The position numbers and the translations under genes were made by a program. Of a stretch of DNA of 32,000 bases, positions 1,310-11,533 are shown in pieces. Under the pieces are notes generated by a model. That model was not told the origin of the DNA, ran no database searches, and saw only the letters and a list, made by a program, of their open reading frames with translations. This stretch comes from Candidatus Electrothrix yaqonensis (GTDB taxonomy: Bacteria > Desulfobacterota > Desulfobulbia > Desulfobulbales > Desulfobulbaceae), in assembly GCA_047651235.1 (NCBI GenBank), contig CP178758.1, positions 1,350,001-1,382,000 of the forward strand, in the 5' to 3' direction. Position 1 is the first letter of the stretch. Every line of letters begins with the position of its first letter.

Positions 1310-1409
1310 CAGCCATCCAGATAGGCAGGATCACCAAAAAGGTAGCCGTCTGGGAAGATTCTTTCTGCTTCTATGTGCCTTCAAAGCGGTAACCTGTTGA
1401 TACTATTAG

Positions 1410-1598
1410 GAATATAGCCCTGAACAAATTGTTTCAATCAGAAAACGATTTAAGCTGAGCTAGGCAGCACTGGCCAGCATTTTCAACATCAGCCCGTCTA
1501 TTGTCAGTAAATGGGAGCTGGGTGACAAAAAGCCTGCCGGAGCTTCAAAAAAACTGCTTGATATTATAGGAAGAAAAGGGCTTGAAGCCTTTATTTGA
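1410..1598 (+). pseudogene. Remnant of an XRE/MqsA-type HTH antitoxin or transcriptional regulator
   Basis: Translation reads EYSPEQIVSIRKRFKLS*AALASIFNISPSIVSKWELGDKKPAGASKKLLDIIGRKGLEAFI, the classic C-terminal HTH pattern (SPEQI..IR...LSQ..A...gvS..TVskWE.G...P.G.a..LL.ii). In-frame TAG at 1461-1463 where Q is usual. Further stops lie upstream (TAG 1407-1409, TGA 1398-1400) and there is no start codon. Confidence 0.45.
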
Positions 1599-1794
1599 AT
1601 TTTTTCGGTGGTGTAATTTACTCTTGATCGGCACCCTAATTTTGTTGTTTGCTATTACGGCGGAAGAAATCAGCCAGATTTTTATTGCGAATCGTACTTT
1701 TGATTTGATTGATCTTTCTTGTAGTTATCTTGGGATTATTGTGGGGGATGTTGTGGTGAGGGTGTTGAAAGGAAAGCGGAATGTAGCCTTGTAA
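1582..1794 (+). CDS. Possible VanZ-like C-terminal fragment (70 aa, TTG start)
   Basis: A hydrophobic helix is followed by AEEISQIFIANRTFDLIDLSCSYLGIIVG, resembling the VanZ DE..Q.F.pgR.....D...N..G motif. It is too short for a full VanZ protein and sits in an AT-rich junk region. Confidence 0.2.
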   Translation: MKPLFEFFRWCNLLLIGTLILLFAITAEEISQIFIANRTFDLIDLSCSYLGIIVGDVVVRVLKGKRNVAL

Positions 1795-1891
1795 CAGGTA
1801 GTTCCCGAAGAACCAGCCGGTGGTTGCGGGTTAGTAGACAGCACAGAATCCAGAATAGGAATCAAAAGTTTATCACAATAAAGGTGAAACC

Positions 1892-2107
1892 ATGCAGCGA
1901 ACACAAGTATCTTCAAGCAACCTTCGATCAGTCGGATACGATCCAGAAACATCAACTCTTGAAATTGAATTTATGCATGGTGGGGTGTACTCATACTCGG
2001 ATGTTCCAGAGGCTGAGTACAATGGTTTGATGTCTGCTTCTTCGCACGGGTCGTATTTCAATGCTAATATCAGGAAAGGAGGTTATCCGTACAGGAAGAT
2101 TCGCTGA
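1892..2107 (+). CDS. KTSC domain-containing protein (71 aa)
   Basis: SSNLRSVGYDPETSTLEIEFMHGGVYSYSDVPEAEYNGLMSASSHGSYFNANIR matches the KTSC-domain consensus as I remember it. Good SD (AAGGTGA) 5 nt upstream of the ATG. TGA stop. Confidence 0.8.
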   Translation: MQRTQVSSSNLRSVGYDPETSTLEIEFMHGGVYSYSDVPEAEYNGLMSASSHGSYFNANIRKGGYPYRKIR

Positions 2108-2145
2108 GAGCTTTGCCATCTGATTGAAATACAGCAAAAAGGTAG

Positions 2146-4989
2146 TTGTTAGTGATAGAGAATATGCTGACCGACGAATACAAAGGAATGCGTTGGCTGA
2201 AGTGTGATTTGCACATGCATACAGCAGGAGATTCCAATCATTGGCATGGGGATTCAATAATTCTTGGACAAGAGGCTGATACTGCAAGAAAATTCGTAGC
2301 AGCCTGTTGTAAAACAGGACTTAATGTTGTCGCGATAACAGACCATAATTTTTTAAGCAAAGACTTTCTTCCGCATCTGCAAACGGCTTTTTCTGAACTT
2401 GAACGCCAAAAAAATCACAAGATCAGTCTGTTCCCAGGATTCGAGTTTGAAGCAGCAGGAGTTGGACGCGGCGTTCATGTACTCTCCTTGTTTAAACCGG
2501 ACTCTGATTTCTCACAGATTCAATCCATATTGACAGAATGCGGTATATCTTACCCAGGGTTGGACCAGAACGGAATCCTGTGTAAATCTGATCTCAACCT
2601 GAAAGAAATCTTACAAATTGTACAGGAGAAGCACAACGGGATTGTTATTCTTCCACACTCTCTGAGTGATGACGGTATATTTGACAATACATCGACAAGA
2701 GAATGGCTCCAGCAGGATCAGTTTACCAACCCTCATCTTTTAGCCGTTGAAGTCCCCAAACCTGTCTGCCAAATGAGCAAGGCATTCCAGAAACTGTTTC
2801 GTTCAGGTGATGACTGCCTCCAAGGTTGGAAAAGAATTCGACCTATTGCCACCTTGATGTCATCAGATAATAAAAAATTAACTGATCAAGGCGAAGACAA
2901 AAAACCGACTCCTAACAGCATTGGATTCCGATATTCTTGGATCAAGATGTCTGACCCTTCCATTGAGTCCCTCCGACAGGCTTTCCTCGACCACGAGTCA
3001 CGCATTTCTCTCCCGAAAGACGTTTCGACTGATATTCACCCAGCTGAACGGGAACGACACGCAGTTATCGAGTCTGTCTCTGTAAAAAATACAGCCTTCT
3101 TAGCTGACCAGGAAATCTACTTTTCTCCCAACATGAATTGTGTGATCGGAGGACGGGGGAGCGGCAAGTCAACGTTGCTTGAGTACCTTCGGATCATACT
3201 GAAAAAAGATCAAAATAAAAAAGTTGACGATAATACAAAAGAACGTATTGGGCGAATACAAAGTACTTTGAACGGGATCTCAGAACTAAAAGTCTGCTGG
3301 AAAAGTGCTGACGGACTCAAGGATTGTATCGTCTGGCGGCAGGGTGACGGCTCTATTGTTCAGGGTGAGGAACAGCCTGATCCAGGTACCTTTTTTCGTA
3401 ACCTCCCCGTTCACTTTTACAGTCAACAGCAACTTAGCCGCCTGACGGAGCCAAAAAAAGATGACGGCAGCGAACGTCTGCTGGAACTACTGGACGGATT
3501 TGCCAAAAACGAACTGAAAGAATTGTCCGAGCAGGAACGAATAGTTAAGCGTCAGATTCAGGAGAATTTCGCTAAACTCCGTCAAGCGAAAGCCCTTGAA
3601 GAAGACTATAAGCGTCTTCAGCAGGAAGAAAATGATCTGACCCGCCAATGGAAGGCACGCCAAGAAATTCAGGAGGATGCTCAAAGGCATCAGCAGCTTA
3701 AAGAAGAATATCATTACCTTGAGGGACTACTGGGTGTTCCGGGAAAACAATTTTCTGATGTTGCCATGCTGGCAGAAAGCATTGCCGATTCCCACCTGTC
3801 TTTTCCGACAGGCGACTTGCCTCATGCGGTATGGTTTCATCAGTTTGATAGTAAAGTGAAAAATGCTAAGGATAAAGTGGCAGAAACAATACGTGAGACC
3901 GTTGAACAGTTCAACCGAGATATCCAGGTATTCAAAGGAGATGACTCGAATTGGCCTGCTATCCAGAAAGAGCTGGAACAAGCAGATGAGCAATTCAGAA
4001 AAGCCTGTGACGATAAAGGTCTTACTCCCGATGATGTTGGTCGCCTTCAGGAAATCAATCAGTCGCGGGAGAAAAAGCAGCGAGATATCGAAAAGCTGAA
4101 GGGAGAAATCCAAGAGATCAAGACAGCATCTGACAACCCGGAAGAAGCAATGCAAAAACTTCATCAGTTATGGAAGGAACAGACAGTTAAACGGGAGAAG
4201 GCAGCAAGCCGAGCAAATAAGTTAGCTGTACTGAATGACAGCGATCGGCCATTTATAGAAGTAACGGTTCAATGTCAGCAAGATAAAAAAAGTTTCCAAG
4301 AACACTGGCAGCATTTTAGAGACGCCACTTCTGTTAAAGGCAATACACGTCTTGGAAAAAACTGGGAAGACTGCGGAAACGGCCTATTCAGCCTTTTCGT
4401 GAGCAAACAGGATGCCGAGTCGCCGTGGCAGTTACTGCATAATCTTCTCCCTGTGGAGCGGGAAGCAATTGAACTTGATTGTGGCAGAATCTCCCATGAG
4501 GAATTGTTTAATCACATTAAAGCGCATCCTGAAGAATGGGAACAACTTCGTTGTTCCAGAGTGCAGGACAGTGTGGACGTGAAGTTGTATCGGGCTGACG
4601 GTTCTCCTGCTGGAAGCATTGCCGAGGGATCGCTTTCCGATGGACAGAGAAATACAGCAGCACTCGCACTGCTGCTCGCTCAGGAAGGTGGTCCTCTTGT
4701 CATTGACCAGCCTGAAGACGAGCTGGACTCTAATTTTGTCTTCAACGAACTGATCCCGATGCTCCGCAAGGTCAAATCAAAACGTCAGATCATCATGGCA
4801 ACACATAATGCCAACCTGCCGGTCAACGGAGATGCGGAATTAGTATATGCTCTTGAAGCGCTTGGAAGCAAAGGAGAAGTGCGCACTCATGGCGGTCTTG
4901 ATCAACATGCTGTTACCCAAGCCGTTCTCGATATTATGGAGGGAACAGAAGAAGCCTTCCGGCGGAGGCGGGAGAAATATCACTTCTGA
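2146..4989 (+). CDS. PHP-domain phosphoesterase fused to a Rad50/SMC-type ABC ATPase (Ppl-like / PHP-AAA fusion)
   Basis: N-terminal PHP motifs: CDLHMHT, AITDHN, FPGFEFE, GVHVLSLF, ILPHS. Walker A GGRGSGKST at about nt 3148-3174. A heptad-rich K/E/Q coiled-coil region of about 300 aa follows. C-terminal ABC signature LSDGQRNTAALALLL, Walker B LVIDQPEDELD and H-loop IMATHNANL. No CxxC hook. Start is ambiguous (TTG 2146, GTG 2152 or ATG 2164). Confidence 0.85.
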   Translation: MLVIENMLTDEYKGMRWLKCDLHMHTAGDSNHWHGDSIILGQEADTARKFVAACCKTGLNVVAITDHNFLSKDFLPHLQTAFSELERQKNHKISLFPGFEFEAAGVGRGVHVLSLFKPDSDFSQIQSILTECGISYPGLDQNGILCKSDLNLKEILQIVQEKHNGIVILPHSLSDDGIFDNTSTREWLQQDQFTNPHLLAVEVPKPVCQMSKAFQKLFRSGDDCLQGWKRIRPIATLMSSDNKKLTDQGEDKKPTPNSIGFRYSWIKMSDPSIESLRQAFLDHESRISLPKDVSTDIHPAERERHAVIESVSVKNTAFLADQEIYFSPNMNCVIGGRGSGKSTLLEYLRIILKKDQNKKVDDNTKERIGRIQSTLNGISELKVCWKSADGLKDCIVWRQGDGSIVQGEEQPDPGTFFRNLPVHFYSQQQLSRLTEPKKDDGSERLLELLDGFAKNELKELSEQERIVKRQIQENFAKLRQAKALEEDYKRLQQEENDLTRQWKARQEIQEDAQRHQQLKEEYHYLEGLLGVPGKQFSDVAMLAESIADSHLSFPTGDLPHAVWFHQFDSKVKNAKDKVAETIRETVEQFNRDIQVFKGDDSNWPAIQKELEQADEQFRKACDDKGLTPDDVGRLQEINQSREKKQRDIEKLKGEIQEIKTASDNPEEAMQKLHQLWKEQTVKREKAASRANKLAVLNDSDRPFIEVTVQCQQDKKSFQEHWQHFRDATSVKGNTRLGKNWEDCGNGLFSLFVSKQDAESPWQLLHNLLPVEREAIELDCGRISHEELFNHIKAHPEEWEQLRCSRVQDSVDVKLYRADGSPAGSIAEGSLSDGQRNTAALALLLAQEGGPLVIDQPEDELDSNFVFNELIPMLRKVKSKRQIIMATHNANLPVNGDAELVYALEALGSKGEVRTHGGLDQHAVTQAVLDIMEGTEEAFRRRREKYHF

Positions 4990-5003
4990 CAAGACCACCT
5001 TCT

Positions 5004-6254
5004 ATGAATAAACCCCTCCGCATCCTCCACACCTCCGACTGGCACATAGGTCGCACCCTCTACGGACGCCCCAGCTACGACGAGTTCACCAAATTTTTTC
5101 ATTGGCTCTACGACACCATTGTCGAGCAGCAGGTGGACATCCTGCTGGTGGCAGGCGACGTCTTCCACACCACCACCCCCAGCAACCGGGCCCAGCAGCT
5201 CTACTACAACTTCCTCTGCCGGGTCGCAGCCTCGTCCTGCCGTCATCTGGTGGTGACTGCTGGCAATCACGACTCGCCCACCTTTCTCAGCGCCCCGCGA
5301 GAACTCCTGCGCGCCCTTAATATCCACGTCCTGGCCACCCTGCCCTCCTCGCCTGCCGAGGAGGTCCTTGTCCTCAAAGACCAGGCCGGACAAGCCGAGG
5401 CCATCATCTGCGCGGTGCCCTTTCTCCGCGACCGGGATATCCGCACAGCAGTCGCCGGACAGGACCAGGATGACCGGGAACAGGATCTGATCCAGGGCAT
5501 CAAACAGCATTATAGCGAGGTCTGCGCCGCAGCTGAGGAGCAGCGCAATACATTGCCCCGTCCTGTCCCCCTCATCGGCATGGGCCATCTCTTCACCGCT
5601 AACGGCAGCAAAGTGGAAGGCGACGGGGTACGTAATCTCTATGTGGGCTCCCTGGCCTCTGTGAGTGCGGACGCTTTCCCGGATAGCCTGGATTACCTGG
5701 CCCTAGGCCATCTCCATGCCCCGCAAAAGGTAGGGGGCAACGAAACCCGCCGCTACAGCGGAGCCCCTCTGGTAATGGGTTTTGGCGAGGCTGAAAAAAA
5801 GAAGAGCGTCTGTCTGCTTGATTTCCCGGCATCCGACCCGACCGCCCCAGCTGTGGAGCTTCTGCCAGTGCCGATATGTCAGCGAATTAAACAGATCAAG
5901 GGCGACTGGGAGCATATCCAGACCGAGCTCACCACCTTGAAGCTGGAAGGCCGGGCCATCTGGCTGGAGATTATTTACCAAGGCGAAGAGCTGATTGCTG
6001 ATCTGCGTCAGCGTCTTGATGCTGCTGTTGCCGGAACAGAACTGAAGATCCTCCGCGTCCGCAACCGCCGCATTATCGAGCAGGCCCTGCATCCGGTTCA
6101 GGCCGAGGAAACCTTGGCTGATCTGGGGCATGAACAGGTCTTTAACCGCTGCCTGGATGCCCATGAAATCCCGGCAGAACAGCGTCCTTCCCTGCTGGCC
6201 GCGTATCGGGAAATCACCCTTGGCCTGGAACAGGATGATCCGATGGCTACGTAG
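5004..6254 (+). CDS. sbcD: Exonuclease SbcCD, nuclease subunit D (Mre11-like)
   Basis: Calcineurin-like/Mre11 motifs are present (LHTSDWHIGR, AGDVFH, AGNHDS, GHLH). 416 aa, immediately upstream of sbcC. TAG stop at 6252-6254. Confidence 0.9.
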   Translation: MNKPLRILHTSDWHIGRTLYGRPSYDEFTKFFHWLYDTIVEQQVDILLVAGDVFHTTTPSNRAQQLYYNFLCRVAASSCRHLVVTAGNHDSPTFLSAPRELLRALNIHVLATLPSSPAEEVLVLKDQAGQAEAIICAVPFLRDRDIRTAVAGQDQDDREQDLIQGIKQHYSEVCAAAEEQRNTLPRPVPLIGMGHLFTANGSKVEGDGVRNLYVGSLASVSADAFPDSLDYLALGHLHAPQKVGGNETRRYSGAPLVMGFGEAEKKKSVCLLDFPASDPTAPAVELLPVPICQRIKQIKGDWEHIQTELTTLKLEGRAIWLEIIYQGEELIADLRQRLDAAVAGTELKILRVRNRRIIEQALHPVQAEETLADLGHEQVFNRCLDAHEIPAEQRPSLLAAYREITLGLEQDDPMAT

Positions 6255-6278
6255 GGGCGGTTCGCGAACCGCCCCTAC
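6251..6278. repeat. Perfect 28-bp palindrome GTAGGGGCGGTTCG|CGAACCGCCCCTAC
   Basis: Read directly from the sequence: its reverse complement is identical to itself. It covers the sbcD stop codon and lies 36 nt upstream of the sbcC ATG. Confidence 0.95.
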
Positions 6279-6313
6279 AACCCTGCACCCAAAAAATAAC
6301 CCCGCCCGCAAAC

Positions 6314-9300
6314 ATGCGTATCCTCCGACTTCGTCTCCACAATCTCAATTCCCTGAGCGGCAAATGGGAGCTTGATTTTACTGATCCCTCTTTTGTCAGC
6401 AACGGCATCTTTGCCATCACCGGCCCCACCGGCTCGGGCAAGACCACTATTCTGGATGCGGTCTGTCTGGCCCTGTACGGGTCTACTCCCCGTCTAGGAA
6501 AAGTAACCGGCAGCAACAATGAAATTATGTCCCGCCGATGCGGTGAATGTTCCGCCGAGGTGGAGTTTGCCACGGTCAGGGGCCGATACCGCTGTTTCTG
6601 GTTTCAGCACAGGAGCCGAAAAAAAACCGACGGCAACCTGCAGCCGCCCAAACGGGAATTTTCCGAGGTGAAAACCGGAAAAATTCTGGCCTCGAAGAGC
6701 GATGAGGTGGCCCGGCTGGTGGAGGAATACACGGGCATGGATTTTGACCGCTTCACCCGATCCATGCTTCTTGCTCAGGGAGGTTTTGCAGCTTTTCTCC
6801 AAGCCGGACAGGATGATCGGGCACCGATCCTGGAACAGATCACGGGCAGCGGTGTTTACAGCGAAATCTCCAAGCGGGTGCATGTACGTTTCACAGCGGA
6901 AAAAGCAGCGCAGACCACGTTGGAGGAAAAGGTTGCAGCCATGCAGCTGCTTTCCTTGAGCCGGGAAAAGGAGCTGCAGCAGGACGTGGCTCGCTTGCAG
7001 ACTGCACAAGCCGAGTCGGAACGGACAATCAGGAACAATGAAGCTCTGCTTGTTCAGCTGGAGAAGATTGCCGAACTGCAACAGGATATTACGGTCATCA
7101 GCAAAGAACAGAGCAGTCTCTTGCAGGAAGAAAAAAATTTTGCCGAGGATGCCGAACGGCTGGCCTTGGCTGAACAGGCCCGTGTGCTGGAAGGAGAGTA
7201 TACAGAACTCCGCTTACTGCGCGACAGCCAGCAGAAAAATATAGCTGCCTTGGCAGCAGCACGGTTGAGCCTGCCCAAAAAAGAAACAGCGGTTAAGGAG
7301 GCGGAACAGCATCTCAACAGCAGCAAGGATGCCTTGGAAGAAAGCAGAGCTGCTCAGGAAAAAGGAACTGCCATTATCCGGGAGGTCCGGGAACTGGATC
7401 TCCGCATCAATGATACAACTGCTACCCTGGACCGGGACAGGAAAAAACAGACTGCACTGAAGGAGCAACAGCAGCAGGATCAGGAGCAATATACGCAGCT
7501 GGAACAACAGAAAAACAAGGCCGCTGCCCGCCTGCAAAAGATAAACCGCTATCTGAGCGAACACCGCATTGATGAACAGCTGAACACGGAACTTGCAGCC
7601 CTCTGCCTGCGTCTTGAACAGTTCGGCAGCTCGGCAGATACGCTGAAAAATCTCCACCTCAAGCGGGACAAAGCTGACAAGGAAAGGGGCAAGACTGAGC
7701 AGACTTGGCAAAAACAACAACAGGCATATCTGACCGCTGAAAAATTACTGAACGATATCGGGCAGCAGCGTGTCGCGATCCAAGATGAACAGACCGCCCT
7801 GCTGAATGGCCGCAGCATTGCGGAAATACGACGGGATTTGCGACTGTTGACGGATCAATGTGCTCTACTCAGGCAGCTACTGGAAAATGCCCGGAAGCAG
7901 GAAAAATTTGTACAGGATCTCAGAGGTTTTTTAAGCCAACAAGAAGAGCTTACTGCGGAACGCGACAAACAGGCTGATGAGTTTGCTCTTCTCCAGGAGG
8001 AGCAGAAGAGAACAAAGGAACAGGCAGAGGCCCTGCGCATCCAAGTTGCTCTTTGTGCCCGTATCCGCGACCTTGAAGAAGAACGCGCCCGTTTGCAGGC
8101 CGAGCATCCCTGCCCGCTCTGCGGCTCGCTTGAGCATCCCTATGCAGAGGAAGAAAATATCCCGATGTTGGATGCAGCGGAAGAAAAATTACAGGCAGCT
8201 CTGGCGGCAAAGGACGCGGCAGATAAAAAAATTTCTGATGCCCGGGTCAGACGTGCTCAACTTGAAGCAAAAGAACAGGAGATGAGCAGGCAACTTCGCG
8301 AAAAGGAAGATGCTGTGCAGGAGCTTGGAGAGCAGCAACATACATTATATAGAGAGCTTGCAGGCCAGACACCGGTTGAGCGAAATCCTGTCGCTATACA
8401 ACAGCACCTTGCAGCATTTCAAGATCGACTCGCGGAAACGCAGAAACAACTTGATGCCGCAGAGCAGGCAGAGCAGAAACTTGACAAGTTCAGTCATGCG
8501 CTGGATAAGCAAAAGGATGCTGTTTTTCAGGCGGACAGAAAACAGGAGGCTGCACGAAATGCTCGGGAAAAGGCCGAGCAGGAGCTGCAAAGATTGGAGC
8601 AGGAATCCAAGGAGGCGGAAGAGATGCTTGCCGCGAAACAGTGCATTGCCTTGGAAAAATTAGCGGTCTACAGTATTACCGGGCTGTCTGTCAATAATCC
8701 GGAAAAAATTATCACTGAGCTCACTGCACGGCGGGATCAATGGCTGGATAAAAAGAAAAAAAAGGAAGCTGCAGTACAGAAGATTGCCTCATTGGACACA
8801 GCAGGCCGAGAACTGCAGGTTGCTATGGACACAAGGCAGAGCCAGATGGAGGAAATGGAGGCCGCTCTTACCGACAAACGCAGAGAACAACAGAACTTGG
8901 TTGAACAACGTGTTCAGCTTTTTGCGGAAAAAGATCCGGATCTCATCGAAAAACAGCTTGCCCAGGCAGTCAAGCAGGCTGAGACAGATCTGCAGAAAAG
9001 CCGAAAAAAATACAATCAGTTGCTTACAGATCGTGCTTTGGCTAGGGCTGATCTCCGCACTCAAGAAGATGATGTCACAAAGGTCAGAAAAGAACGTGAA
9101 CAGGTTGAAGCACTTTTTATCCAGCGACTTCAGGAAAAAAGTTTTACCGATGAAAAAGCTTGGTGTGCAGCCCGTCTCGCTGAAGAACAACGCATTGCTC
9201 TGAAGAAGCAGGCTGATGCTCTGCGGGATCGGAAAATCCGGCTTGACACACATCTACACAGCAAGGAAACAGAGCTTGCCGCTGCACAAGAAGCCCTGTC

Positions 9301-9994
9301 CGCAGATGATATCCAACAGGAAAAGCTTCAGCAGGAACAGGATGCCCTGACCAATGAACAGAACCATATTCTTCAAGAGATCGGTTCTCTCCAGCATCAG
9401 CTTCAACAGAACAAAGAGCAACGGAATCAACAGCAGGAACTCCTGCATAGCTTGGAAGCGCAGAAAAGAGAATGCCTGCGCTGGAAAGAGCTGCACGACC
9501 TGATCGGATCGGCAGACGGCAAGAAATATCGTAACTTTGCCCAGGGACTCACCTTTGAGCTCATGGTTGCCCGTGCCAATGAGCAGCTGGCCCGGATGAC
9601 CGATCGCTACCTGCTGGTCCGGGATCAGGCCCAGCCCCTGGAACTCAACGTGATCGACTCCTGGCAGGCCGGAGAGATCCGCTCCACCAAGAACCTGTCC
9701 GGCGGCGAGAGCTTTGTGGTCAGTCTGGCCTTGGCCCTGGGGCTTTCCGAAATGGTGGGCGGCAATGTGCGGGTGGACTCCCTCTTTCTTGACGAGGGCT
9801 TTGGTGCCTTGGACGATGATGCCCTGGAAACCGCCTTGGAAACCCTGGCCGGGCTGCAGCGGGAGGGCAAACTGATCGGCGTGATTTCCCATGTCGCGGC
9901 CCTCAAGGAACGGATTGCCTGTCAGCTGGAGGTTATTCCGGGGACAGGCGGGCAGAGTGTTGTGCAGGGAGCCGGGGTGAGGAGGGTGGAATGA
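6314..9994 (+). CDS. sbcC: Exonuclease SbcCD, ATPase subunit C (Rad50-like)
   Basis: Walker A GPTGSGKTT. Very long Q/E/K coiled coil with a central CPLC zinc hook (about nt 8111-8122). C-terminal LSGGESFVVSLALAL signature, Walker B LFLDEGFGALD and ISHV. 1226 aa. Confidence 0.9.
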   Translation: MRILRLRLHNLNSLSGKWELDFTDPSFVSNGIFAITGPTGSGKTTILDAVCLALYGSTPRLGKVTGSNNEIMSRRCGECSAEVEFATVRGRYRCFWFQHRSRKKTDGNLQPPKREFSEVKTGKILASKSDEVARLVEEYTGMDFDRFTRSMLLAQGGFAAFLQAGQDDRAPILEQITGSGVYSEISKRVHVRFTAEKAAQTTLEEKVAAMQLLSLSREKELQQDVARLQTAQAESERTIRNNEALLVQLEKIAELQQDITVISKEQSSLLQEEKNFAEDAERLALAEQARVLEGEYTELRLLRDSQQKNIAALAAARLSLPKKETAVKEAEQHLNSSKDALEESRAAQEKGTAIIREVRELDLRINDTTATLDRDRKKQTALKEQQQQDQEQYTQLEQQKNKAAARLQKINRYLSEHRIDEQLNTELAALCLRLEQFGSSADTLKNLHLKRDKADKERGKTEQTWQKQQQAYLTAEKLLNDIGQQRVAIQDEQTALLNGRSIAEIRRDLRLLTDQCALLRQLLENARKQEKFVQDLRGFLSQQEELTAERDKQADEFALLQEEQKRTKEQAEALRIQVALCARIRDLEEERARLQAEHPCPLCGSLEHPYAEEENIPMLDAAEEKLQAALAAKDAADKKISDARVRRAQLEAKEQEMSRQLREKEDAVQELGEQQHTLYRELAGQTPVERNPVAIQQHLAAFQDRLAETQKQLDAAEQAEQKLDKFSHALDKQKDAVFQADRKQEAARNAREKAEQELQRLEQESKEAEEMLAAKQCIALEKLAVYSITGLSVNNPEKIITELTARRDQWLDKKKKKEAAVQKIASLDTAGRELQVAMDTRQSQMEEMEAALTDKRREQQNLVEQRVQLFAEKDPDLIEKQLAQAVKQAETDLQKSRKKYNQLLTDRALARADLRTQEDDVTKVRKEREQVEALFIQRLQEKSFTDEKAWCAARLAEEQRIALKKQADALRDRKIRLDTHLHSKETELAAAQEALSADDIQQEKLQQEQDALTNEQNHILQEIGSLQHQLQQNKEQRNQQQELLHSLEAQKRECLRWKELHDLIGSADGKKYRNFAQGLTFELMVARANEQLARMTDRYLLVRDQAQPLELNVIDSWQAGEIRSTKNLSGGESFVVSLALALGLSEMVGGNVRVDSLFLDEGFGALDDDALETALETLAGLQREGKLIGVISHVAALKERIACQLEVIPGTGGQSVVQGAGVRRVE

Positions 9995-10272
9995 GTTCGG
10001 CTTATGGCACAGAGTAACGGAATAAATATTTTTCCTAACAAAACAAGGAGACTGGTTTACGTTTTCGACCCAATATGGTTCGAATAGTCCTGTTTAAAAT
10101 AAACATTTAATTTAGTTCTATTTTTTTCAAAAAAAAACACTTCGCAGCTGAGGTTACGCAGCCGAAACGCAAAATCGGCAGATTCTACGTTCTGGGTGTC
10201 TCGTAACTTACTGATTTTTTATTTACGTGCGTAACATCAGTGGGTAGGTACGAGGGATGTGAAATATGGGCT

Positions 10273-10920
10273 TTATCCGATGGAGACTGAGTTGAAACCG
10301 GGCAGTTTGACCGCTTTATAATTATATACCTTTATCTGATAATACAAAGACTTGTAAATGGATTTTCTGATCAGATCCGCCGGGGAAAGTTCGCTTATGT
10401 TCTCGCTCACAGGAAGGATTCCTGCATGCTTAAATGCTGCACCAACCAATTCCGAGCAAAATAATTCTGAGGCATCCTCTTTGTTTCTGGTTATGGAACA
10501 AAATTTGTCCAGCAGATCAAATCCGGCCTTCTTTATATCCTCATAATCATATCCCTTGCCGACCTGCTCCAGAATGAAATCATACAGTTTCGGTTCATCT
10601 ATTTTACTTCTGACGTTATCAGACAGCCGTGCAATCCAGATATCTCCTTTGTAAAAGGGAATGGAATTTGAAAAATTATTGATTATTACCCCTTCTCTTT
10701 CTGGGTACATATCTCCCTATGATGCTTCCACAAAATTAATTCTGTCATCTTTTCTGATAATCAGAGCAATATGTGAAGCAGGAAAGCGGGTAACAAGACG
10801 AATTAATTTTGAAAGCCTGTATTGGCCTCCAAAAATCACTACATCTCCGGTCTGCAGTTCGTTCCGTATATTCTGGTAATTGATGGCAAGCGGAAATTTT
10901 TTTTCCTGATCCCGTATCAT
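10273..10920 (-). pseudogene. Permuted papain-like amidase (YiiX/YaeF, peptidase C92 family) with one in-frame TAG
   Basis: Track ORFs 10717..10920 and 10273..10710 are in the same frame, separated only by TAG (plus-strand cta at 10717-10719). The joined product carries LQTGDVVIF...SHIALI...FVEAS*GD...GKGYDY...FCSELV, matching the E. coli YiiX pattern (QTGDIIF, SHTGML, FEA, YDF, YCSELV). Confidence 0.65.
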
Positions 10921-11062
10921 GTTTTCTCCTCTGAATTCATATAATAAGTGTTTATTCTCTCGTGATTTTCACAGGTGCCTGATACAAAAACATCTTTGAG
11001 CAAAGGAGAACTCAGGTGTATTCTGAAGAAAATAGGTACCAAGATATTTCCGGAGGTTACAA

Positions 11063-11345
11063 ATGAGCTGCAACCACCTGAGTTCCGCTAAAAGATACTA
11101 TATCGAAATTGAGCTGAAAAAGAAAGTTTCGAATAAGCAGGCAGATCGTTTCGCCCGTGAACGGCATACTGACGAAGTAAAAGGCGGATAGAATAATCAA
11201 CAAAATAAGATATATAGTTTCGGTATATCTTCAAGGCGACTTGAATCCTGAACAGATTGCCAGCCGTCTGCGTGAAGAAGACGTGGTGTCCCTTCATCAT
11301 GAAACCATATATCAGGATATTCTGACCGACAAAGATCACTTGAAT
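11063..11345 (+). mobile_element. IS30-family transposase N-terminal remnant (frameshifted and truncated)
   Basis: MSCNHLSSAKRYYIEIELKKKVSNKQADRFARERHT (11063-11191, ends at TAG) resembles the IS30 N-terminal HTH (HLs..eR..Ie..lk.g.s...IA..lgR..sTI). A second frame gives LQGDLNPEQIASRLREEDVVSLHHETIYQDILTD, the IS30 'SPEQIagRL...vSHETIYryIy' block. There is no DDE domain and I found no inverted repeats. Confidence 0.5.
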
Positions 11346-11533
11346 GTCAGTCTGCTCTGATTTTTCCCCGCTTTATATCTTTATCCCTGTTGGCAAAAAC
11401 TCTATCATGTGATATTCTTGTTCTTGATAGCGTTCAGATTTTTTTCTGAACGGAACCGAATAGTATTTTCCAGCTGTCTGTGTTGCAGTAATGTTTTTTC
11501 TTTTCAAAATGTTACTGCCCGGGTTTTTCGGAG

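Follow-up and report, generated by a model that had tools for sequence, protein, structure and literature searches.

In a 32,000-nt stretch of the Candidatus Electrothrix yaqonensis genome (contig CP178758.1, forward strand, positions 1,350,001 to 1,382,000; hereafter the window), a gene directly upstream of sbcDC encodes a PHP metal phosphoesterase fused to a Rad50/SMC-like ATPase with a split ABC head. By sequence, the gene is a member of the TrlF family and not an orthologue of the defence protein Ppl proper. We consider it fairly probable that the product is a stand-alone, Ppl-like, nucleotide-gated DNA-end exonuclease, which would act in defence against phage or invading DNA and is carried as mobile cargo in an islet of low guanine-plus-cytosine content (GC). 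All positions given below without a locus handle are those of the window.

The open reading frame (ORF) spans 2146 to 4989 on the plus strand and opens with TTG, exactly as the first-pass annotation had taken it from the ORF list. The 947 aa stated there hold for this maximal frame, but the true start is probably the ATG at 2164, which gives 941 aa. This start is favored because the NCBI protein P0001 (“TrlF family AAA-like ATPase” of Candidatus Electrothrix sp. YB6), 100% identical to the window protein, is 941 aa long, and because the N-termini of homologues agree (M..YKGMRW). PHP and ATPase residues are numbered accordingly on the 941-aa protein.

The window protein matches the NCBIfam model NF045780 (TrlF_fam_ATP) with 548.1 bits, well above its curated cutoff of 350, with residues 13–946 of the 947-aa ORF aligned to positions 1–944 of the 944-position model; the PHP plus split ABC architecture is the same over the full length. 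It falls below the cutoffs of the Ppl equivalog NF042955 (241.8 bits against 1000) and of the Spaf_1101 model (198 bits against 475). Ppl from an E. coli plasmid (locus L012, 4992–7679) scores 1326.7 bits on its own equivalog and 475.5 bits on the TrlF model. Since Ppl itself thus passes the TrlF cutoff, TrlF is a broad family within which Ppl forms one subclade, and the NCBI label “TrlF family AAA-like ATPase”, borne by many plasmid and chromosomal genes, effectively reads as Ppl superfamily and should be taken to denote a Ppl-like defence candidate. The first-pass term “Ppl-like” is borne out by the best PADLOC match, the Ppl model PDLC02208 (E = 2.1e-59; residues 14–944 on model positions 4–891 of 894), and by a BLASTP alignment with the annotated plasmid Ppl that is collinear across the whole protein (E = 3e-44), but the identity is only 23% and the equivalog cutoff is missed. 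The enterobacterial and Pseudomonas plasmid TrlFs that we examined are about 24–27% identical to the window protein, and the family comprises 1114 clusters at 50% identity (E ≤ 1e-30). As the family is already curated and the mechanism of Ppl already published, the phage-defence reading is plausible and unsurprising, and its novelty is modest.

The N-terminal module is a PHP domain of the TrpH/YciV-like type. Pfam PHP gave 18–21 bits on the window sequence alone, below its cutoff of 26.4. We then built a profile on 23 diverse family members, using their ~285 N-terminal residues; its PDB matches (9e-7 to 4e-4) were exclusively PHP structures, the best being TM0559 (2anu, 9e-7), 9etk (4.8e-6) and the 5'-3' exoribonuclease 7ug9 (4.4e-5), followed by 3e0f and 3e38. 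Among the same 23 members, Pfam recognizes PHP in eight and PHP_C in four, and the scan of all 23 returned no competing domain family for the module. These results support the earlier proposal of a PHP domain at the N-terminus. The expectation that profile searches would return PHP together with an AAA_23 head was realized for AAA_23, which exceeds its cutoff, and for PHP through the module profile, but not for PHP on the single sequence.

The PHP residues comprise D15-L-H17-M-H19-T, D23, ITDH61N, PGFE94, H105, H165, and D235. Eight of the nine canonical ligands are therefore in place (H17, H19, D23, H61, E94, H105, H165, and D235), but the motif set that had been called complete-looking departs from the canon at its end, where the final D-x-H reads D235-N-K237. 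In E. coli Ppl, the sequence GSDAHH stands where the window protein has M-S-S-D-N-K. In an alignment of 62 diverse family members, D15, H61, E94, H165, and D235 are conserved and H105 is nearly invariant, while H17, H19, D23, and K237 vary. The AlphaFold2 (AF2) model places the putative ligands at or just after the C-termini of strands, with a predicted local distance difference test (pLDDT) score above 90, as expected of a PHP barrel. The closest solved relatives, TrpH/YciV (RNase AM)-type enzymes (9etk, 7ug9, 3e0f, and TM0559 2anu), share the D-x-H-x-H, DH, E, H, H, D layout. Those enzymes, however, are stand-alone proteins of ~290 aa acting 5'-3' on RNA or on pAp, whereas the module described here is fused to an ATPase and has its final His replaced by Lys.

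The remainder of the protein is a Rad50/SMC-like ATPase, on which Pfam, PDB profile searches, and Foldseek agree. AAA_23, AAA_21, and AAA_15 exceed their Pfam cutoffs on the window protein, and all ATPase motifs listed in the table are invariant in the 62-sequence alignment, which reaches down to 24% identity. In the PDB profile search, the ATPase half matched SMC3, SMC5, SMC6, Rad50, RecF, RecN, and AriA (8v46). The AF2 model, computed from the 62 diverse representatives, has a mean pLDDT of 89.5 and a predicted template modelling score (pTM) of 0.78; a model from 38 close homologues was poor (pLDDT 65.9) and was discarded. Searched with Foldseek, the retained model retrieved MukB, Smc, Wadjet JetC, RecF, condensin, Rad50, and RecN, so that the likeness to Rad50/SbcC anticipated from sequence is also found in the predicted structure. 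The PDB entries searched included no structure of Ppl or TrlF. The head is not an orthologue of a housekeeping RecF, RecN, or SMC clade.

The two halves of the head are separated by an insert that had been described as about 300 aa of coiled coil without a zinc hook. Long helices are indeed predicted (residues 435–500, 503–523, 529–542, 555–593, 596–617, 622–655, and 659–687), and no CxxC occurs anywhere in the window protein, which therefore lacks a zinc hook. The description needs amending in that the helices cover ~260 aa and are followed by a mixed subdomain of ~110 aa (residues ~691–800), in which conservation across the family alignment is lowest.

The combination of a metal-dependent nuclease with an SMC-class ABC ATPase bearing a helical arm is also that of SbcCD and Mre11/Rad50, and Rad50 heads are among the best matches. 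The proposal of a one-polypeptide analogue of the SbcCD logic is thus well founded, as the matches in sequence and structure include Rad50 and a PHP domain is fused where SbcCD has a calcineurin-like nuclease. The protein is an analogue and not a member of that group: it differs in its nuclease, in being a single polypeptide, and in its short arm (~260 aa in total) without CxxC, and a bona fide sbcDC pair lies next door. Similarities also exist to defence systems that couple an SMC/OLD-type ATPase to a nuclease. PADLOC gave weak matches to the AriA, GajA, and PtuA heads, JetC was one of the top Foldseek matches, and AriA (8v46) was found by profile; these matches extend over the P-loop and signature regions only. 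In contrast to those systems, which have Toprim, HNH, or Cap4 effectors, the window protein has a PHP domain fused to it as its effector, and partner genes are absent.

Ppl shares with the window protein the domain order, the length, the ATPase motifs, and most PHP ligands, and it is likewise a single gene on mobile DNA. The two differ at the active site, where the window protein has D-N-K for the D-A-H of Ppl and Asp at position 23 for Ser. Ppl is said to be among the anti-phage proteins of Gao et al. 2020. It has been validated as a single-gene defence system, which is countered by gp130 of phage Bas63 (PMC11482910). The first-pass view that its mechanism is essentially uncharacterised has been overtaken: according to the passages of PMC12904381 and PMC13434339 that cite Xu et al., Mol Cell 2026, Ppl is a 3'-5' exonuclease on single-stranded DNA, is inhibited by nucleoside triphosphates (NTPs) bound at both the PHP and the NTPase domain, and is switched on by 3'-OH ends left by phage homing endonucleases.

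Given this homology, we propose a mechanism in which two ATPase heads would engage around nucleotide, by analogy with E. coli Ppl as outlined in PMC12904381. The arm and head may then recognize DNA ends or structures arising during infection, upon which the PHP site would degrade the DNA exonucleolytically. Bound nucleotide would hold the enzyme off in the healthy cell, and a loss of NTPs during infection would release it. For the window clade, the defence activity, the substrate, the polarity, and the nucleotide gating are all put forward by analogy and would need to carry over from Ppl.

The gene resides in a low-GC islet between a flank comprising the 3' part of an ABC-F gene with a small zinc-finger ORF and the start codon of sbcD. 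The GC of the islet is 0.42–0.48, against 0.55–0.60 in its flanks; gene by gene, trlF has 0.458, sbcDC 0.548, and the ABC-F gene upstream about 0.59. Upstream of trlF, the islet holds a decayed RelE/HTH (helix-turn-helix) gene, a VanZ-like ORF, and a KTSC-domain gene. The RelE/HTH remnant has lost its N-terminal, RelE-like half and contains an in-frame TAG (1461–1463) where Electrothrix laxa (L019) has CAG (Gln); the intact L019 counterpart contains RelE, HTH_3, and MqsA_antitoxin domains. The DNA of the VanZ-like ORF is 82–90% identical in L018, L019, and L020. Neither direct or inverted flanking repeats nor a tRNA integration site could be found convincingly for the islet, and scans for promoters and terminators gave counts near shuffled expectation. 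The coordinates of the protein motifs, the islet, and the neighboring genes are collected in the table.

Table. Features of the trlF gene, its surroundings in the window, and TrlG-type genes at other TrlF loci (positions refer to the window unless a locus handle is given).
Feature	Position	Strand	Basis and remarks
trlF-family gene	2164..4989	+	941 aa + stop; maximal ORF from TTG 2146; NF045780 and NCBI identity
PHP metal phosphoesterase module, TrpH/YciV-like type	2188..3018	+	aa ~9-285; module profile, Pfam in relatives, AF2
PHP motif I, D-L-H-M-H-T (D15, H17, H19)	2206..2223	+	family alignment; HxH kept in window
Last PHP motif, M-S-S-D235-N-K237	2857..2874	+	canonical D-x-H; Lys instead of His
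N-terminal ABC head half	3064..3453	+	Pfam AAA_23/AAA_15/AAA_29; invariant columns; Rad50/SMC matches in PDB
Walker A GGRGSGKST	3148-3174	+	aa 329-337
Q-loop FYSQQQL	3415-3435	+	aa 418-424
Long-helix (coiled-coil) insert	3454..4233	+	aa ~431-690, ~260 aa; AF2; without zinc hook
Mixed alpha/beta subdomain	4234..4563	+	aa ~691-800, ~110 aa; AF2 secondary structure; between coiled coil and C-terminal head half
C-terminal ABC head half	4564..4986	+	Pfam AAA_21/SMC_N; invariant columns
Signature LSDGQRNTAAL	4633-4665	+	aa 824-834
Walker B/D-loop LVIDQPEDELD	4696-4728	+	aa 845-855
H-loop ATHN	4798-4809	+	aa 879-882
Low-GC variable islet	1310..5003		from ABC-F/zinc-finger genes to sbcD start codon; composition and cross-genome comparison
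RelE/HTH (MqsA-like) remnant, decayed	1407..1598	+	90% DNA identity to E. laxa L019 5979-6175
70-aa ORF, weakly like VanZ C-terminus	1582..1794	+	Pfam VanZ 23 bits, below cutoff; recurrent islet landmark
KTSC-domain gene, 71 aa	1892..2107	+	Pfam KTSC 1.5e-26; directly upstream of trlF
sbcD, Mre11-type calcineurin-like nuclease	5004..6254	+	Pfam Metallophos and SbcD_C
sbcC, Rad50-type ATPase, CPLC zinc hook	6314..9994	+	Pfam AAA_23 and SbcC_Walker_B; ...EHPCPLCGS...; context, separate from the fusion
TrlG-type gene near TrlF	L011 11032-12528		
TrlG-type gene near TrlF	L013 7604-8767		
TrlG-type gene near TrlF	L015 500-1486		
TrlG-type gene near TrlF	L017 508-2217		

Species-representative genomes were scanned with the window SbcD, which returned four Electrothrix loci with SbcD proteins 80–86% identical to it. 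No TrlF lies upstream of sbcD in any of the four, the contig of E. marina (L022) being uninformative as it reaches only 1.4 kb upstream; the remaining three, from E. laxa, E. gigas, and a metagenome-assembled genome (MAG) of an Electrothrix sp., have an intact sbcDC without TrlF upstream. DNA homology between the window and the other Electrothrix genomes restarts near the start of sbcD (5003–5019, depending on the genome). In E. laxa, the RelE/HTH and VanZ-like landmarks recur with 90% DNA identity to the window and are followed by a gene for a 777-aa AAA_13 protein (L019, 6456–8789) that matches PADLOC model PDC-S06 at 3e-256, then by a duplicated 5' fragment of sbcD, a toxin–antitoxin (TA)-like pair, and sbcD itself. 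E. gigas (L021) has no islet; genes unrelated to defence, namely glyS, ilvC, and one with an Lcl_C domain, lead up to sbcD. The earlier description of an AT-rich insertion is therefore upheld by both composition and the comparison with four other Electrothrix genomes, and the patchy distribution is not that of a core gene conserved at this position.

Two metagenomic TrlF variants, P0108 (L018) and P0004 (L024/L025), are likewise encoded directly upstream of sbcDC, and the accompanying SbcD proteins are 78–81% identical to that of the window. In L024/L025, the order is trlF-sbcD-sbcC with an 18-nt gap and no partner gene before sbcD; in L018, the order is the same with a small TA insert, and only small unannotated and TA-like ORFs lie between trlF and sbcD. 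Across all three TrlF-bearing loci, the GC of trlF is ~10 points below that of sbcDC. Because TrlF, PDC-S06 with TA genes, or no islet at all occupies the same position depending on the genome, the site is a variable slot for swappable defence and TA cargo, which TrlF fills in only some of the Electrothrix-like genomes.

Copies of 50–130 nt of the sbcD 5' end are found at L018 9319–9371, L019 8820–8947, and L022 247–361. They precede a small inserted TA-like pair composed of a UPF0175 protein and a 157-aa DUF3368-like protein. As such duplicated 5' ends stand before inserted TA-like pairs in several genomes, they suggest repeated insertion at the start of sbcD.

Outside the islet group, the closest homologues are 64–70% identical and come from unrelated taxa such as Klebsiella, Bilophila, Syntrophotalea, Nitrosomonas, and Oleidesulfovibrio. 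The homologues P0040, P0092, P0016, and P0021 are embedded in BREX loci of type 1 that read BrxC-PglX-TrlF-GmrSD-PglZ-BrxL, and in most BREX loci examined the start of trlF overlaps the stop of pglX. P0011 and P0111 follow an N6_N4 methyltransferase gene and have a UvrD-family helicase gene downstream, directly in L011 and behind an insertion sequence (IS) in L015, with AlbA_2/HATPase_c_4 or AbiE genes nearby. On a Klebsiella plasmid, TrlF and a TrlG-like AlbA_2/HATPase_c_4 gene are both wedged into a type I restriction–modification (R-M) operon, whereas E. coli Ppl and a Pseudomonas TrlF are solo genes (L012 and L014). Of 1143 plasmid records with a relative, 820 are conjugative; a few P2-like phages and elements of satellite size carry relatives as well. 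This distribution is that expected of a defence gene.

The BREX-embedded form recurs as a cassette. In L001–L009 and L017, with the gene at 6001–8823 in each, TrlF and a 598-aa GmrSD (BrxU-like) protein are encoded between pglX and pglZ in many gut and sediment bacteria. PHP-ATPase genes inside BREX find no mention in PMC12839542, on BREX diversity, or in the embedded-defence preprint. In four contexts unrelated to one another, genes of the TrlG type, with AlbA_2 (Schlafen-like) and/or HATPase_c_4 domains, lie only a few genes away from TrlF, which hints at a regulatory or effector partnership of TrlF with TrlG-type proteins. No such AlbA_2/HATPase_c_4 gene was found flanking trlF in the window.

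These contexts raise the possibility that the window gene is an orphan of a multi-gene system with TrlG, GmrSD, or UvrD, and is inert or decaying after the loss of its partner and regulator. Partner genes begin within 9–25 nt after TrlF in most relatives examined, AlbA_2/HATPase_c_4 genes recur near it, and the islet does contain decayed genes, namely the RelE/HTH remnant with its in-frame TAG and the VanZ-like ORF that scores below threshold. The 941-codon frame, however, is intact and its catalytic residues including HxH are retained (the final canonical His being K237). Moreover, Ppl is a validated single-gene system, other solo TrlFs exist, and the sbcD-adjacent relatives in L024/L025 and L018 have no partner gene either, L018 offering only its small unannotated and TA-like ORFs. 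We therefore regard an inert orphan as unlikely.

The position of the gene could instead mean that TrlF is an accessory of the adjacent SbcCD, co-transcribed with it and acting in DNA-end or hairpin processing rather than in defence. The stop codon of trlF is 14 nt from the start codon of sbcD on the same strand, with no terminator-like site between them, and the gene order recurs in L024/L025 and L018. The divergence of the ATPase part (80–83% identity) also matches that of SbcD (78–81%), consistent with co-inheritance. Against this, E. laxa, E. gigas, and another Electrothrix MAG have an intact sbcDC but no TrlF beside it; the E. laxa slot is occupied by a different ABC-ATPase defence candidate, PDC-S06, beside the duplicated sbcD 5' fragment; and the GC of trlF is foreign, about 10 points below that of sbcDC, in all three TrlF-bearing genomes. 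Elsewhere, the family occurs in BREX, R-M, and plasmid settings with no sbcCD nearby. On balance, we give an SbcCD accessory role little credence.

The name TrlF derives from the temperature-restricting locus (TRL) trlR-trlF-trlG of Photorhabdus (laumondii) (PMC7554251), which includes trlR, encoding a small HTH protein, and trlG, whose AlbA_2/HATPase_c_4 product has been termed RecG-like; the window gene is flanked by neither, its neighbors being the KTSC gene, the VanZ-like fragment, and the broken RelE/HTH gene upstream and sbcD downstream. A TRL-type restriction of growth under stress such as a temperature up-shift, through replication arrest, is very improbable here. In its favor, that locus gave the family its name and is the subject of the only genetic study of a gene called trlF. 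The Photorhabdus phenotype, however, mapped to trlG only, with all selected mutations in trlG and no trlF mutants recovered (PMC7554251), and in the window trlG has no counterpart, while the one HTH gene there is a broken remnant. Auto-activation of a defence system would, moreover, fit the TRL phenotype.

Comparison of the gene along its length revealed two different affinities. Residues 301–941 are 72–96% identical, segment by segment, to a 954-aa sbcD-adjacent subgroup, whereas residues 1–250 are 36–39% identical to that subgroup and 61–72% identical to a 940-aa group associated with BREX and methyltransferases. At the DNA level, identity to L018 sets in at nt 2938, where the PHP module gives way to the linker (2164–2937 against 2938–4986). 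To judge from these alignments, the gene is a mosaic in which the PHP module has been swapped, with the breakpoint at the PHP/linker boundary.

PHP motif I varies strikingly within the family. The window protein keeps HMH, but 98 of the 120 closest homologues read QxQ at this motif, as do roughly half of the diverse representatives of the family. The QxQ forms retain D15, H61, E94, H105, H165, and D235, and intermediates are found (HMQ, QVH, QxG, and QxN). As the other ligands stay conserved and intermediates exist, QxQ looks like a selected alternative state of the active site and not like decay. The idea that QxQ forms are nuclease-dead sensors tied to BREX and GmrSD was rejected in that form, as an HMH protein, P0021, likewise lies inside BREX beside GmrSD and QxQ lies deep in the family, with the other ligands all conserved. 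A more speculative scenario, which we hold to be improbable, is that TrlF of cable bacteria has been domesticated into a joint operon with sbcDC, the two nucleases acting together on DNA ends so that defence is coupled to repair; more broadly, the deep and conserved change from HxH to QxQ in most TrlFs may mark a second functional state of PHP with another metal, substrate, or sensor role, perhaps together with GmrSD inside BREX.

Our preferred reading, a stand-alone Ppl-like defence exonuclease, must be weighed against several observations. A defence role for the window clade is argued by homology at a considerable distance, with at most 27% identity to the plasmid TrlFs and 23% to Ppl, and the only study of a gene named trlF concerns temperature restriction and found mutations in trlG only (PMC7554251). 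Many relatives are closely linked to a partner gene, for GmrSD, a UvrD helicase, or a TrlG-like protein with AlbA_2/HATPase_c_4, which is missing here, so solo activity is not guaranteed. The active site has D-x-K where Ppl has D-x-H, and the nearest solved PHP relatives include the 5'-3' exoribonuclease 7ug9; given such relatives and the differences at K237 and D23, polarity and substrate are not transferable from Ppl. Finally, the location of trlF directly upstream of sbcDC in three genomes leaves room for a role in repair.

These results place a nuclease-ATPase of the Ppl superfamily in a swappable defence slot beside sbcDC in a cable bacterium (Electrothrix). The family is large and frequent on conjugative plasmids and in BREX and R-M loci, yet studies have been confined to the narrow Ppl clade of E. 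coli. Should the window clade prove active, its members may provide natural variants for investigating communication between PHP domain and ATPase, namely D-x-K versus D-x-H, HxH versus QxQ, and the swapped PHP module. Current views are not overturned by these findings, the value of which lies mainly in annotation and comparison.

The KTSC gene directly upstream of trlF has no PADLOC match and no defence annotation; it was ruled out as a conserved TrlF partner, as no KTSC gene lies near TrlF in L018. At the upstream border of the islet, a 62-aa ORF (1121–1309) overlaps the end of the ABC-F gene and carries a DnaJ-type CxxCxGxG zinc-finger motif that remains below the Pfam cutoff at 23 bits. 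GC is low (0.385) in a second stretch as well, located between sbcC and a gene for a tail-specific protease (10000–11500). Two adjacent minus-strand ORFs in this stretch (10273–10710 and 10717–10920) may represent one disrupted gene; the 145-aa ORF of the pair has no Pfam or PADLOC match.

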